Part shown: piece by piece, positions 35,681-41,363 of the stretch | How the letters are laid out: every line of letters starts with the position of its first letter | Position numbering within the stretch: position 1 is the stretch's first letter | Assembly: GCA_963703285.1 (NCBI GenBank) | Contig: OY969807.1 | Location: 1,408,001 to 1,472,000, forward strand | Reading direction: 5' to 3' | DNA from: an uncultured Nitrososphaerota archaeon | GTDB lineage: Archaea > Thermoproteota > Nitrososphaeria > Nitrososphaerales > Gagatemarchaeaceae | DNA length: 64,000 nucleotides | Notes under the pieces: model-generated | What the model was told of the DNA's origin: nothing | What the model saw: the letters and a program-made list of their open reading frames with translations, nothing else | Databases searched by the model: none | Made by a program: the position numbers and the translations under genes

Positions 35681-36022
35681 TTTCGCTGTGAAGAGAAGGC
35701 TTCCGCCAATTCGTAGGTGTGACGGATTCGAACTCGAGAACCCCCTGAAAGTTCCGTTATGTGTCAGGAGATTCTCGCTGGATTCGATTCTTGCTGACCG
35801 CCAATGCTCCTCCACCATCGTGATAGGAGTTCCGAGTTCCATCGAGAACTCGCGTGAGTTGTGAATATTGTAAAGGCTCAAATGTGGTTCAAAGAGCCTC
35901 CTTGGTAACGTACAGGGCGATGAACAAGAACGAGTAGTCTCTAAGCGTCATCGAGCGGTATGGACCGTCCTCGCAACGTTTTTCTAACATATGCCAACCA
36001 CGACGCGACAACCGCCTTGGTA

Positions 36023-36553
36023 ATGGTCTTCCAGGTAGCCGCGCCGGCGGGACTGGCTGACGCTGTCTATGGGGTGGTCGCGGCGCTGCTCATCACGGGC
36101 GCCGTGATTGCCTTGCTCTCATTGAGGGCTGGGAAGGAGAAGAGGGTGAAGCTACTCGTCGTCGGCGTTGTGGTGCTCGTGGCTGGCGGGGGCGTCTTCT
36201 TCGTCTCCAACCCCACCCATCAGGACTCGATAAGAGTCGGATCAGGTTCCGTCCAGGTCTCCACTTCTTTCTTCAACGTCAACGTCACCTCGAACCAGAT
36301 ATCCCGAGCCTTCGTCGTCAACTTCTCCAACTGGAATGTCTCGATAACCTCGAGGACCGACGGGTCGGCGTTCGGCTCGTTTCACTCCGGGTTCTTCTCG
36401 CTTTCCAACGGGGCCAAGGCCGAAGTGCTTACCACCGAAGACACCAACTTGGTAGTGGTGCTCGACAGCGGCACCTATCTCATCCTCGGCCCGTCAGACT
36501 TTCAGTCGTTTCTGAACTCGTTCAGCCAGTCAGTGATGCAGGTCTCCGGTTGA
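36023..36553 (+). CDS. Membrane protein with a bacterial PH-like domain
   Basis: Two TM segments then RTDGSAFGSFHSGFFSLSNG. Confidence 0.7.
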   Translation: MVFQVAAPAGLADAVYGVVAALLITGAVIALLSLRAGKEKRVKLLVVGVVVLVAGGGVFFVSNPTHQDSIRVGSGSVQVSTSFFNVNVTSNQISRAFVVNFSNWNVSITSRTDGSAFGSFHSGFFSLSNGAKAEVLTTEDTNLVVVLDSGTYLILGPSDFQSFLNSFSQSVMQVSG

Positions 36554-36763
36554 CTCACAGTTCAGCCGTCCCGGCTAGTCTCATCAACCCGAGCTGAAGC
36601 GTGGTGTCCGGACGAATTTTCGTTTGCCACGGATTCCTGCGAGAACCCCAATCGCCACAGCGGTTCTGCAATTCCTGATTCTGCGAATTCCGGTTTCTAG
36701 CCCTTTCAAACGGGGTAAGCATCATGCTCAAACCAGGTGCAAACCGTGACTTGCGAGTTTGTA

Positions 36764-36804
36764 TGGTGCGGGGGGTGGGATTCCAGCCCTAATTTGCTGG
36801 TAAA
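36764..36804 (-). repeat. att-like copy of the tRNA-Leu 3' end
   Basis: TGGTGCGGGGGGTGGGATTC is identical (20 bp) to 39621-39640. Confidence 0.85.
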
Positions 36805-36920
36805 TAGTAAACCGATAAGAATCGTTTGTAGTCTGGTGAGCTCGACCAGTATACTTTCGTCTGATAGATTTGAATCATAATTAGGAATAGACCAGGTTTC
36901 GGGGAGGAGTGTCCACAATC

Positions 36921-37349
36921 CTACCTCAAATCCCCTTTGAAGATCCACTGGACGCCATACTTATCATAGAACTGCCCATACATTCCGAATGGCATTTCGT
37001 GCAACTCCTGGAACCGCGATTTTTCTGCTCTTGCCGCAAGTTTGTCAAAGACTCTTTTCAGCTCCTCGTATGCTCCACCGATAACAAATACAGCGTATGA
37101 ATTCCCCTGTTTCCACTCAAGTGCAGGGGAAGCCATCCAGTCTGTTGCAGAAATTTCTAAATCACCGCTTTTCAATTGAGCATTTATGATTCTGTCGTGC
37201 TTTTCTTTTGGGAACTGGGCTTTCATGGGGGTATCGCCAACCTTCGTGAGCTTCAGGTCTCCGCCAAGACATTCGTGGTAAAATGTCAGGACTTCTGCAC
37301 AATTTCCGTCAAACAGAAGGAATGGCGTGCAACGCAACATGTTGTTCAC
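36921..37349 (-). CDS. VOC/PhnB family protein (AT-rich)
   Basis: PFLLFDGNCAE..FY, MPFGMYGQFYDKYGVQW. Confidence 0.9.
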   Translation of the reverse strand: MNNMLRCTPFLLFDGNCAEVLTFYHECLGGDLKLTKVGDTPMKAQFPKEKHDRIINAQLKSGDLEISATDWMASPALEWKQGNSYAVFVIGGAYEELKRVFDKLAARAEKSRFQELHEMPFGMYGQFYDKYGVQWIFKGDLR

Positions 37350-37975
37350 CTTAGTCCTTTGGCATTGTCCATATTAATGATATCATGTTTTGGACCAAAA
37401 TCAGTGGGGCCGGTGAGATTCGAAAAGTAGCAGGCAGTAATGGGAGTCAAGCAGTGACTTGCTTCGGCTTCGTCGTGAACAGCCTCCTCTCCTCGTCGCT
37501 GAGAAAGTTATAGCAAGGATACGAGCACCGACACCGAACGAGGAGTACTTCCTGATGACCTTCTTCGGGTTCCTCGTTATCGGCCTTTATTTCATGGGGA
37601 AAATCACCAAGCGAACTCGGACCTAAAGGAAGTCGAAAAGTCGGCGGGGCTGGTGAGCTTCGACCAGTATGCTTTCGTTTTTTGGATTTGGATTAACCCT
37701 CAGACGAGGCTAAAACTTGCGTGACAAAATGGATGAGCCCATGAGCAATCAGCTTTGATGTAGTGGTTAACCGCTCCTTATACTTCGATACCTGAGTAAA
37801 GGTATAACGAACCCAATCTGTAAAGTACCTCATCTGTATTCTGCCCGTTCGAAATGGAGTGAGGGAAAGAAAACAATTGGGCCATTCCGAGGAAAAGGGA
37901 TTGCTTTGGAGATTTAGTCTATCGAGGGGTTTAATAGATATCCAAAAGATCAGGATAGATACTCGACGAGATGGG

Positions 37976-39199
37976 CTACCTGGTCAGGGGTTTATTCCTC
38001 TTTCTTCCCAGAGGTGAGCGCGCCACCGCAAGAATCACTCCGATCTGGACGAGCACTAGCACTATGTAGGAGACCGGGAGTGATGTGCTAGAAGCTGCGC
38101 TTGTTGTAGTAGACGTAGCAGAGGTGACCTCAGTGGCCGTCGAGGAGGCAACTGAGCCGGAGACCACAAAGACCTTGCTGGAGCCATCACTCACGAACAG
38201 CTCGCCCTTGCCCGAGTCGTAAGCCACGCCATCCGCACCGCCCGTACCGTATACGCCGCCTAGGGTCAGGTTCCCTACGACCGCGTTTGTAGAGTCGGAT
38301 ATCATGTAGACGACGGCGCCTACGCCAGTGGTCGCGAGGACATCTCCGCTGGCAGGGTCGTATGCCATGTTGTAGAGAGCAGGCCCCAAGACCAGGTTAG
38401 CCACCACTGTGTTCGTGGCGTCCGAAATCACTGTGACGTTGTTTGGAGCGGCACCGCCGTAGTTTGTGCCGACAAACATCTCGTCTCTAGCCGCGTCATA
38501 CGCCACGGTTGAAGGCCATTCCCCTACAGTCACGTTCGCAACGACCTTATTGTCGCTGTCAGAGATTACCGATACCGTATTGGACGATATCGGGCAATAA
38601 CCTGTGCAGGAGTCGGAATCGGCTACGTACAACTCTCCCTTGGTTGGATCGTACGCGATACCGTTAGGCCCGCTTCCCCCTGTCCCACTGCTCGCTATCG
38701 TAACGTTTGTGACTACGGTGTTCGTGCTATCCGAGATCACGGACACGGTGTTTGAGCCGTGGTTGGATACGAAGATCTCGCCCTTGGCTGAGTCATACGC
38801 TAGACCGGCAGGCCCGCTCCCCACCTTAACGGTTGCGACTACAGCGTTGGTACTGTCCGAAATCACGGACACGGTGTTTGAGCCGTAGTTTGATGCGAAG
38901 ACCTCGCCCTTGCTCGAATCATACGCCACCTGGACGGGGTCGCTCCCCGCGCTCACGTTCGCCACCACTGAGTTGGTGGCGTCGGATATTACGGCTACAG
39001 AGTTCGCGCCATATGCAGAGTCGGCGACGAAGACCTCGCCCTTCGCTGAATCGTATGCTAGGCCTCCGGGCCCGCCATGGACCGTCACGCTCGCAACCAC
39101 AGTCATGCTCGCTGCACTGGCCAACGGGACCTCAGCCGAAGCAAAGACCAGAAGTAGGAGGACTGTCAGGACGACCGCTGCGCGACCTGCGAAACGCAC
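37976..39199 (-). CDS. YVTN/YncE beta-propeller surface protein
   Basis: Signal peptide, repeated AYDSAKGEVFVSN..NTVSVISD, C-terminal TM plus basic tail. Confidence 0.9.
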   Translation of the reverse strand: MRFAGRAAVVLTVLLLLVFASAEVPLASAASMTVVASVTVHGGPGGLAYDSAKGEVFVADSAYGANSVAVISDATNSVVANVSAGSDPVQVAYDSSKGEVFASNYGSNTVSVISDSTNAVVATVKVGSGPAGLAYDSAKGEIFVSNHGSNTVSVISDSTNTVVTNVTIASSGTGGSGPNGIAYDPTKGELYVADSDSCTGYCPISSNTVSVISDSDNKVVANVTVGEWPSTVAYDAARDEMFVGTNYGGAAPNNVTVISDATNTVVANLVLGPALYNMAYDPASGDVLATTGVGAVVYMISDSTNAVVGNLTLGGVYGTGGADGVAYDSGKGELFVSDGSSKVFVVSGSVASSTATEVTSATSTTTSAASSTSLPVSYIVLVLVQIGVILAVARSPLGRKRNKPLTR

Positions 39200-39532
39200 C
39201 TACCGTCGTGCCAGACCCGAGTTATTATCGTTTTAGGGTACTTGCCGCTGCCGCCGAATTTGACCTCGTTGCTTCCTTCTTTAGCGCGGATGCCCCCTAT
39301 CAATTCCGCAGGGCCAGAGCTCTCAGTTTTTTGGTGCGTTAGAGAAACCCCACGGGCTAGAAGCCCGTGGTCCGCAAGCTTGTCACGTGATTCTTCCAAG
39401 GTTTCCGCGGGGCCCTCACTGGCCCTCTGTGCGCACAGGAGGGGTTGGTTCTGCCGTCGCTTGGGCCTGGCTCAATAGGCCGATGGGATTGCGTGTTTGG
39501 CCTAATAAAGACGCGGATTTGAATAGTATACT

Positions 39533-39573
39533 TGGTGCGGCCGGTGAGATTTGAGCCACAATTTACTAGTAAA
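39533..39573 (-). repeat. Degenerate tRNA-3'-like att fragment
   Basis: 32/41 ungapped identity to 36764-36804; ends in palindrome TTTACTAGTAAA. Confidence 0.7.
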
Positions 39574-39620
39574 GTCGGGTGGAAATAAATCCACATTATC
39601 GAGCAATGAGACGCGAATTT

Positions 39621-39708
39621 TGGTGCGGGGGGTGGGATTCGAACCCACGAACCCCTAAGGGATTGGAGCCTCAGTCCAACGCCGTTGGCCATGCTGGGCG
39701 ACCCCCGC
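39621..39708 (-). tRNA. tRNA-Leu(GAG), CCA encoded, no intron
   Basis: GCGGGGG..TTGGA-CTGAGGC-TCCAA, long variable arm, GTGGGTTCGAATCCCAC. Confidence 0.95.
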
Positions 39709-39803: not shown

Positions 39804-39899
39804 GCCGGCGTAGCTCAGTTGGTAGAGCGTGCGCCTCGTAAGCGCAAGGTCGAGGGATCGACACGGCTGGGAGCCGCGATAAACCCTCCGCCGGCTCCA
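39804..39899 (+). tRNA. tRNA-Thr(CGT) with a T-loop intron (39863-39882, position 59/60)
   Basis: TGCGC-CTCGTAA-GCGCA; perfect BHB GAGGG-ATCG-ACA-CGGC..GCCG-CGAT-AAA-CCCTC; CCA encoded. Confidence 0.92.
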
Positions 39900-39928
39900 T
39901 ATTCACAGCGCATGAATGACTATCCAGT

Positions 39929-41029
39929 CTAGGGTCTAGGTACCTCGAGCAGGAGAGTTCTAATCACTTCGTCGTAGTCTACAAAAGAGAGAATTGCGTA
40001 GCCGCGAGCCATCCAAGGATTGTACTTGAAATCCTGTCGCAGCTTTCGGGTGAGTTTAAGGAGTTCTTCCTGAATGCAGAGTCCAAAGTCACGTCTTCTC
40101 CTAGTTGATATCATCCTCGTTTGAATTGCGACTTGAGCGTCTGTCGAGTAGAGGTCCTTACCACCCCTTGAAGGTTCTTCGATGACCAACTTTCGCAGGC
40201 CTAGATACTTCGCCCCGCACAGGTACGCTATCTCGGAACCTATTCGACCTTGGTCATAGACAGAACCTTCACGGAGCATCGTGCCTTCTAACTCTCTGTG
40301 CAGAATGACCGAGTCAACAATCATCGCATACGAACACTTTCCCTGAACCAAGTTGAGGTGCCTTCCCGAGTAACTGCGAGGCTGGACCAACCCGTAGAGT
40401 TCCTCAGAAGGAGGTTTGGCATAGCAGGTTGATACCGCGCTTTGCCGGCCATAATGAACCCTCAACCTGAATCCATCGAAGGAGAGCAGACTAACCGATT
40501 CACATCCAGCTCCACGATCGATTTGAATCTGTGGTGGATTCAATCCATCGTGTCGAATTCTCATCTTCCACACCCTCCCGATGTAATCGGCGAGTTTGAA
40601 CTGTAGGTAAACTCCTCCGTGTTGGTTGCTAACTCCTGGATATGCGTCGATAATGCCAGTCATTGTGAAGTAAGATAGGTTAGCTAGTGGATGGTCCTGA
40701 ACGACTTCTATCCGAATCTTATCATCAGCTATTGCGAATGATTCGAGTACGACCCGGTCCGCCGCCCATCTCACATTGCGGCGGTTCTCAAGCTCGAAGC
40801 TTGGGATGCCTGAGACAAACGATTCCCTCGACAACTGTTCGAGGGAGATTATGACGTCTTCTCCTGGAGCCGATCGGTCTCTCGGAAGCACAGGTCTGAA
40901 CTCGTTTCCTCCTTTGTACGTGTGATAGCTGAAGAACGAGCCTCCAGAATCGTGTACCTCAATCTTGACTGCGATTTGGTCATGATTGGACGAGGTGGAG
41001 GTTTCACGTACAATTCTCGAGTTTGACAT
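39929..41029 (-). CDS. Hypothetical low-GC protein with a possible restriction-endonuclease-like C-terminus
   Basis: Long ORF with atypical composition; GRIGSEIAY..EEPSRGGKDL..VAIQTR. Confidence 0.55.
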   Translation of the reverse strand: MSNSRIVRETSTSSNHDQIAVKIEVHDSGGSFFSYHTYKGGNEFRPVLPRDRSAPGEDVIISLEQLSRESFVSGIPSFELENRRNVRWAADRVVLESFAIADDKIRIEVVQDHPLANLSYFTMTGIIDAYPGVSNQHGGVYLQFKLADYIGRVWKMRIRHDGLNPPQIQIDRGAGCESVSLLSFDGFRLRVHYGRQSAVSTCYAKPPSEELYGLVQPRSYSGRHLNLVQGKCSYAMIVDSVILHRELEGTMLREGSVYDQGRIGSEIAYLCGAKYLGLRKLVIEEPSRGGKDLYSTDAQVAIQTRMISTRRRRDFGLCIQEELLKLTRKLRQDFKYNPWMARGYAILSFVDYDEVIRTLLLEVPRP

Positions 41030-41363
41030 ACTGTCAAGCCGGCGTGCAGAGATGAATATCCTACCGTCACGCCCGATTTTGAAAGAATGAATTGTGTGAT
41101 TTGTCTGTTCTCTGAGTTGAGCTGAATCGGGTCGGAGATTCGGAAGCGTACGAAGGTACTCGCCCCAGAAATAAAAGCACCCATACGCTGCGTATAGAGC
41201 AGCAATCCTGCCTGTTCGGACAAAACTATTAATCACAAAAATCCTGAATTCCGCCCGTGAAGTAGGTGGAATTTTCGGCAAAAAGCCCTGAGCTTGGCGA
41301 CACGGAGGATTCTATCCAAGGGGATTTCGGGTCGATTCCGCTAGTCGAGAACGAACATACCCC

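Follow-up and report, generated by a model that had tools for sequence, protein, structure and literature searches.

Attachment sites copying tRNA 3′ ends probably delimit an integrase-less integrated unit beside tRNA-Leu(GAG) in an uncultured archaeon of the Nitrososphaerota

In Streptococcus, integrative elements accrete in tandem with integrase-less cis-mobilizable elements (CIMEs), and in Dehalococcoides islands stand in tandem at ssrA. The attC sites of integrons are imperfect inverted repeats (R''-L''...L'-R') whose conservation lies in structure and not in sequence. Archaeal integrons use such attC sites (PMC9668308, main text), and the integrated elements of Thaumarchaeota, according to the sections of the survey by Krupovic et al., 2019 (PMC6563490) drawn on here, target the 3' parts of tRNA genes, intron-bearing ones included, by means of tyrosine recombinases and can build arrays through reuse of the site. 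Here we describe a locus from a member of the non-ammonia-oxidising group of Thaumarchaeota from soil and peat (the group described in PMC10640624). The stretch analysed, called the window below, comprises 64,000 nt (G000:C1:1408001-1472000) of a closed genome (G000) of 2.25 Mb and 60.6% GC; coordinates are window positions, features lie on the minus strand unless a strand is given, G0xx denotes genomes, L0xx and L1xx denote loci or metagenome contigs, and the relatives are mostly metagenome-assembled genomes (MAGs). Directly downstream of tRNA-Leu(GAG) lies an insert of 2.86 kb (36764..39620) that contains a series of fragments resembling tRNA 3' ends. We consider, with a probability of roughly 0.7, that these fragments belong, as attachment sites, to a lineage-specific family of integrative elements using tyrosine recombinases, and that the insert is one integrase-less unit of this family.

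The target is tRNA-Leu(GAG) (39621..39708; ARAGORN, Rfam 49.8 bits), the last 20 nt of which, CCA included (39621-39640), form the left copy of a direct repeat. Its right copy, an attR-type Leu core (36764..36783), is exact, and a search of the whole 2.25 Mb found just these two copies. The array beside the tRNA that the preliminary description had proposed is real. Between them the GC content falls to 0.525 (0.457 in the half carrying the VOC gene) against 0.606 for the genome. The empty target site is found in G005:C39, where the homolog of the flank 36616-36732 sits 37 nt from the same tRNA and the insert is missing, which identifies 36764-39620 as an insertion. A direct repeat and an empty site are also what is met with in tRNA-targeting genomic islands, but the integrase that such islands carry beside their att site is absent here from both the island and the window: the insert has att sites at both ends and no genes for recombination or transfer, and a Pfam profile search found no Phage_integrase (PF00589) match anywhere in the window, as had been claimed from the sequence at the outset. 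No Pfam match was found either in the two open reading frames (ORFs) that overlap the att copies (36706-36948 and 39357-39692), where a split integrase of the SSV type would be expected. Related elements with their own integrase do exist, on G014:C8, on G001:C109 and in G000 itself at tRNA-Leu(CAG). The first of them occupies the same tRNA-Leu(GAG): a 444-aa ORF with a Phage_integrase domain directly follows the tRNA (L036:16880-18214) and the far-end site lies 6.7 kb away, at G014:C8:1333445.

Two observations concern this tRNA and its surroundings. CCA is encoded in tRNA-Leu(GAG) and in the site cores (39621-39623, 36764-36766), and is not encoded in the other Leu tRNAs of G000 or in its tRNA-Pro(GGG). 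In two relatives contigs end (G010:C16:1-598 and G002:C49:1-497) inside the homolog of the gene at 35960-36553, near the tRNA-Leu island, and such assembly breaks fit a repeat-rich or variable region.

The fragments inside the insert are indeed derived from tRNA 3' ends, as proposed; their parent, however, was misidentified, since both inner cores (37404 and 39533) and, in its 3' part, the second fragment family (family B) are copies of tRNA-Pro(GGG) from the T-loop to the 3' end and not of tRNA-Leu. The first family (family A) holds up in full: 36764-36804 and 39533-39573 are identical at 32/41 positions, neither has another counterpart in the genome when up to 10 mismatches are allowed, and none of 2000 shuffles attained their local alignment score of 46. 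One arm of this family, with a spacer, lies directly 5' of the right Leu core (36784..36828) and recurs as a contiguous composite in metagenome contig L107 (1579-1631); the second (39555..39573) lies directly 5' of a Pro-like core that ends in CCA and has one Leu-like position (39533..39554; found by repeat search, with a weak match to the site model described below), in the same layout as in L107 286-328. Two B sites are present, 0.8 kb apart. Site 1 (36829..36876), 3' of the VOC gene, consists of an arm, which we call the P arm, and a truncated Pro-type core, and site 2 (37644..37694), downstream of the YVTN gene, of a P arm and a Pro-type core. A Pro-type core stands alone at 37404..37424, identical at 19/20 positions to the 3' end of the tRNA-Pro(GGG) of G000. 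The fragment at 39478 that the preliminary description counted separately proved to be part of an arm of about 85 nt, the P' arm (39448..39532), which can be aligned with the full junction sites of G021:C6; taken with the core that adjoins it (39448-39554), the arm matches the tRNA-Pro(GGG) 3' end of G000 and its native downstream flank at 75% identity over 107 nt. Finally, on the attL side, the core of tRNA-Leu is followed by an arm (39574..39620) that is contiguous with a Leu core and an A arm in L107 224-321 (local alignment score 106). Two further likenesses were rejected. The 11/12 match that would make this last arm a relative of P' is not significant alone, as 97 of 2000 shuffles equal it, and the TTTACTAG motif, which occurs in the far-end arm of the integrase element of G000 itself, is only weakly linked to the family-A arm because it is missing from three other far-end arms of the family to which that integrase element belongs.

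The extensions shared within family B turned out to belong to a conserved unit of about 50 nt, P arm plus Pro-type core, with matches in other genomes. The P arm reads ...ATTCAAATCC-ATCGAACGAAAGTATACTG; in gene orientation the site reads AATTCAAATCC-ATCGAACGAAAGTATACTG-GTCGAAGCTCACCGGCCCCA(CCA), with a further conserved stretch, CTATTCCnAATGAAT, upstream. A sequence model of the site (R1), built from eight copies that include both window sites, scores site 1 at 51.3 bits (E 2e-14) and site 2 at 58.4 bits (E 1e-16), two values that are not independent as both sites are in the model, and matches the lone core at 37404 in part (E 0.0017). Independent support for the family comes from the other 33 of the 35 matches, in loci of other genomes, and from 35 metagenome loci. 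In complete junctions the core is followed by a P' arm, AGTATACTATTCAAATCC-GCGTCTTTAT..., and such full P-core-P' junctions are found at six places in three genomes and at 8/35 metagenome loci. Across species the P arm is 84% conserved on average and the flanks are unrelated; in the 35 aligned sites and the 35 metagenome loci the similarity stops at a fixed breakpoint, just after CTCAC or after the core, which is the pattern expected for strand exchange in the core. No attC-type hairpin was found: RNAalifold predicted 0 conserved pairs on the 35 aligned sites, and single-strand DNA folds of five full junctions have a stem from GTATAC palindromes only (z-scores -1.5 to -3.5). In some B sites the core is followed by GGATTTGAACTGG(C)AGCTTCGAATCGG, which can be read as a second, inverted core (L033 16537-16700, L044 5386-5460, L034 2205-2280, L030 11790-11870); in L033 a complete core and P' arm follow about 90 nt after this motif. 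Inverted second cores may mark inversions or empty units.

Scanning this and sister genomes with the profile, a check suggested at the start, located B sites at other loci, with matches in 12 of the 23 genomes of the genus. Outside the genus a match was found in 1 of 119 genomes of the order, a member of a sister genus; the order sample comprised 121 genomes, scored with stricter filters, among them G000 (match) and the genus member G007 (no match). G021 accounts for 26 matches; its contig C6 carries 11 of them and C3 carries 12, and both rows lie wholly on the plus strand. Sites of the same orientation lie less than 4 kb apart there with cargo between them (0.7-2.7 kb in the dense parts), and those on C3 are downstream of tRNA-Pro(GGG) and in its orientation. 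Each interval holds one to three intact ORFs in either orientation, among the products of which are VOC proteins, TetR with SDR, HxlR, an NHL propeller, Pyr_redox-TusA-DsrE, a hydrolase, a cation-efflux (CDF) transporter, GtrA, a methyltransferase, TrkA-CLC-P-type ATPase and regulators. No PF00589 match and no IntI were found within these rows, and a tblastn search, for which two integrases and seven further proteins of the elements served as queries, detected no integrase or backbone remnant in them except one ATPase stub.

The cargo of the window is as first described, a YVTN protein, a VOC gene and a gene fragment. A VOC/glyoxalase-family gene of 142 aa (36921..37349; Pfam PF06983, PF00903) is followed, in window coordinates, by the fragment (37447..37545), whose translation is the C-terminal 32-aa remnant of a TraG/AAA_10-like ATPase (72% identity over 32 aa to the ATPase end at L012:4578-5861) within a repeated module of about 225 nt (37404-37631) with copies in other genomes, and by an NHL/YVTN beta-propeller gene of 407 aa (37976..39199; Pfam NHL 2.6e-17). 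Both intact genes recur with the same sites and different neighbours: a copy of the VOC module at 88% identity stands between two B sites on G021:C6, and the YVTN module has counterparts in other contexts in G003:C85 (96% identical) and G014:C1 (91%). Inside the site boundaries the cargo is thus 88-96% identical between species, as compared with 75-87% for the conserved flanks.

Metagenome contig L107 joins both ends of the window island, twice. In tRNA orientation it carries first an integrase-type far-end arm and a Leu core, then an arm like 39620-39574, and continues with an A arm and Pro core (like 39573-39533), 1.2 kb of cargo and a B site, spacer and A arm (like 36876-36784); next comes a Leu-like core, after which the first arms are repeated. 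The ends of the island are therefore contiguous in L107, as expected for an attP or for the junction of two tandem units. Its integrase-type far-end arm and Leu core directly before such a unit, which are absent in the window, may represent a tandem arrangement, and on G021:C3 a cargo unit stands ahead of a unit that bears a recombinase.

The search for a tyrosine recombinase, also proposed in the preliminary description, yielded candidates outside the window. On G001:C109 a 9.8-kb island extends from tRNA-Pro(GGG) to a B site that serves as its far-end attachment site, and contains, in this order, a recombinase beside the tRNA, a P-type ATPase, a CDF transporter, a PIN protein and a catalase-peroxidase. 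The recombinase, of about 440 aa, starts about 130 nt from the tRNA as an ORF and about 55 nt from it by protein match; orthologs of 86-91% identity occur on G014:C11, at about 60 nt from tRNA-Pro, and on G021:C3, where the first B site directly precedes the gene. Pfam gives no match to this Pro-type protein. Over its full length, however, the protein can be aligned with the Pfam-positive integrase of metagenome locus L127 (E 4e-21), found 330 nt from a B site; the Pro-type protein also retains the conserved K, R, G and Y positions and matches the archaeal XerA (4a8e) weakly (E 3.3e-4); a stronger profile match used an alignment that also contained Pfam-positive members. The tyrosine-recombinase-like family of about 440 aa is present in 21 of the 23 genomes of the genus in several copies each, with members at L130:6571-7881, L035:6822-8132 and, as distant paralogs of the Pro-type enzyme in the source genome, G000:C1:2148947-2150242 and G000:C1:176555-177421. 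Since Pfam misses this family, PF00589 counts understate the integrases of these archaea. The Leu-type enzyme of G000 belongs to an integrated element of 7.7 kb at tRNA-Leu(CAG) that is bounded by the same Leu core (G000:C1:1627269-1635071, L025) and encodes a 412-aa Pfam-positive integrase (L025:1364-2602) that has a zinc ribbon at its C-terminus, together with a topoisomerase-like protein (PHROG 6247) and an AAA ATPase of 642 aa. The closest relatives of this integrase are on contigs of Nitrososphaerota or 'Candidatus Gagatemarchaeum' MAGs. Among 20 neighbourhoods of Leu-type integrases the cores were Leu in three, a third tRNA in one, a fourth tRNA in four and another tRNA in one; four lay at the end of a protein gene and seven had no T-loop-type motif. 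One match in IMG/VR to the 20-nt core pattern was taken as chance: it falls within coding sequence, its flanks are unrelated, and its record contains no integrase.

We propose that a site consists of a P arm, a core that copies the tRNA from the T-loop to the 3' end (Pro(GGG) or Leu) and a more variable P' arm, and that 36764-39620 arrived at the 3' end of tRNA-Leu(GAG) when a P-core-P' site recombined with the tRNA, duplicating 20 nt. The anatomy of the sites, the empty site and the joined form elsewhere show this step. Inside the unit, Pro-type sites delimit a YVTN module, a VOC module and the stub of a larger, ATPase-bearing element. In general, cargo units without a recombinase may insert side by side, the target being either a tRNA or the core of a unit already in place, and serial insertion could then produce head-to-tail rows in which every junction is again P-core-P'. 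Movement would require a recombinase acting in trans, supplied by a resident or an incoming element, for which the Pro-type enzyme of about 440 aa and the 412-aa Leu-type enzyme are the candidates. The Pro-type sites of G000 itself are probably inactive, as judged from its gene content, because the orthologous enzyme is absent.

Such units resemble CIME accretion and the ssrA islands in that they are bounded by att sites derived from the end of a tRNA-like gene and that some of them, lacking an integrase, may stand head to tail with integrase-bearing elements of the same core, and in the reuse of one target. They differ in their archaeal host, in the up to 11-12 sites per row, in the small size of the units (0.7-2.7 kb), in the highly conserved P arm and in the combination of Pro and Leu cores in one compound site. 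With the integrated elements of Thaumarchaeota, as presented in the consulted sections of PMC6563490, they share the phylum, the targeting of tRNA 3' ends and the tyrosine recombinases, and the att repeats are short in both cases, with a median of 17 bp in the survey and 17-20 nt in the present family. Those elements, however, are multigene and mostly carry their own integrase, and the same sections describe neither rows of integrase-less units of one to three genes nor a conserved site family of about 50-130 nt. In the literature searched, supplements excluded, we found no description of archaeal rows of integrase-less units with tRNA-mimic sites. What is new is a variant of site-specific accretion, the units of which may be active.

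Several points weigh against this interpretation. Neither an excision product nor a circular junction was seen in assembled contigs, the only material covered, and none of these bridges the island; contigs with parts of the stretch occur in 13 runs, four of which were examined, and the G000 strain is present in two, in pieces of at most 852 nt. A few contig joints (37424>37757, 37694>37757) have sides of 22-32 nt and lie in other organisms' contigs, with no bearing on excision. An ortholog of the Pro-type recombinase was not found in G000, its best paralog being 38% identical; the Pro(GGG) core occurs in none of the 20 Leu-type integrase neighbourhoods inspected; and the likeness between the P arm of B sites and that of Leu-type integrase elements was drawn by eye only. 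Some sites are truncated or degenerate (the core at 36829 in the window; G003:C85 2738-2762), and stubs of the ATPase, 32-157 aa long, keep their C-terminus beside a core (32 aa in the window, 33 in L035, 58 and 34 in L044, 157 in L039); larger elements have evidently also been eroded at these loci. The units hold one to three genes in both orientations and are thus small islands rather than uniform cassettes, and in relatives assembled mostly from metagenomes repeated sites of 50-130 nt could give rise to assembly errors.

The most serious alternative is that the sites are dead, passive scars of full-size elements, each of which integrated once with its own integrase, one after the other, and was then whittled down by deletion. 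Its relative, the proposal of stacked, decayed integrations in the preliminary description, keeps some force from the ATPase stubs, which always retain the C-terminus beside the core, from the truncated sites and from the absence of the cognate recombinase from G000. Against it stand the rows of G021, in which tblastn detected a single ATPase stub as the only trace of element proteins, the intact cargo ORFs, a P arm that is 84% conserved between unrelated flanks, complete P-core-P' junctions that persist, and the joined ends of the island in L107. We regard passive scars as unlikely, and attachment sites that would be served by a recombinase in trans describe the family better.

Much less probable is that the fragments are functional pieces of RNA, that is exons of split or intron-bearing tRNAs, tRNA-like 3' untranslated regions or terminators. 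Many tRNA genes of G000 do contain introns and some are missed by detectors, and the B sites of the window are 3' of genes; but neither ARAGORN nor Rfam called a tRNA at any fragment, there is no conserved structure, the genes of the rows run in both orientations relative to the sites, and the sites coincide with homology breakpoints and with the ends of an integrase-bearing island.

Least probable of all is a canonical integron or a cluster of attC sites lacking an integrase (CALIN), since the occurrence of sites on one strand at distances under 4 kb, separated by cargo, and the integrons reported in archaeal MAGs of nine phyla (PMC9668308) are outweighed by conservation in sequence with 0 predicted pairs in 35 sites, by a core that is a tRNA 3' end, by the lack of IntI, by genes in both orientations and by a main text of that report in which tRNA, Thaumarchaeota and Nitrososphaer do not occur. 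The similarity in outcome is real, in that same-orientation rows of sites separate diverse accessory genes, often with no integrase nearby (as in the main text of PMC9668308), but here the site is a sequence-conserved tRNA mimic with arms instead of a structured attC, there is neither IntI nor attI, and the units have their own promoters and genes in mixed orientations. The idea of an integron-like array put forward initially is thereby retained for the same-strand rows, recurring cargo, joined ends and candidate recombinases, and does not extend to attC-type hairpins, IntI or uniform gene orientation: the family of attachment sites and units is integron-like in outcome and is not an integron.

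A more ambitious proposal, which we put forward tentatively and on which we would not yet rely, is that the genus runs a gene-capture system based on tRNA mimicry, in which integrase-less units of one to three genes with swappable cores (Pro or Leu) and arms would insert serially at tRNAs and be moved in trans by the recombinase family of about 440 aa that Pfam does not recognise. Compound sites, with a Leu-type site between the halves of a Pro core as in L107 and at the ends of the island, would retarget units between tRNAs, and the whole would be an independent functional analogue of the integron. If units do move in trans, this would represent a second, independently evolved way to integron-like rows of genes, and a new recombinase/site pair with a defined and retargetable tRNA specificity. 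Thaumarchaeota of the group I.1c type are abundant in acidic soils and peat and uncultured, and to our knowledge how they exchange genes has hardly been described. The site of about 50 nt is easily searched and flags the ends of mobile cargo, which includes surface beta-propellers, glyoxalase-type enzymes, metal and ion transporters, redox and sulfur-carrier genes and regulators, so that such a marker would make it possible to map the accessory gene pool, and the way in which it flows between species, straight from metagenomes.

Upstream of the target tRNA a probable tRNA-Thr(CGU) lies at 39804-39900 on the plus strand, with an insert of about 20 nt in the T-loop; it was missed by ARAGORN, scores 28.9 bits in Rfam against a cut-off of 29, and its anticodon and intron were read from the sequence by eye. 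Directly downstream of it a 450-aa ORF of GC 0.49 (39929-41281, minus strand) is missing in G005 and about 68% identical in G012 and G014. Considered as a hidden recombinase, this ORF gave no Pfam, PHROGs or Atlas signal and was rejected; the ORF may represent a second insertion. Near 41200-41300 a search for a repeated copy of the 3' end of the neighbouring tRNA found none. Elsewhere in G000 a second pair of Leu-type 3' ends, one of them with CCA, stands 1.6 kb apart (G000:C1:597295-597342 and 598923-598950, L026) and may delimit another small insert, at an unannotated intron-bearing tRNA.

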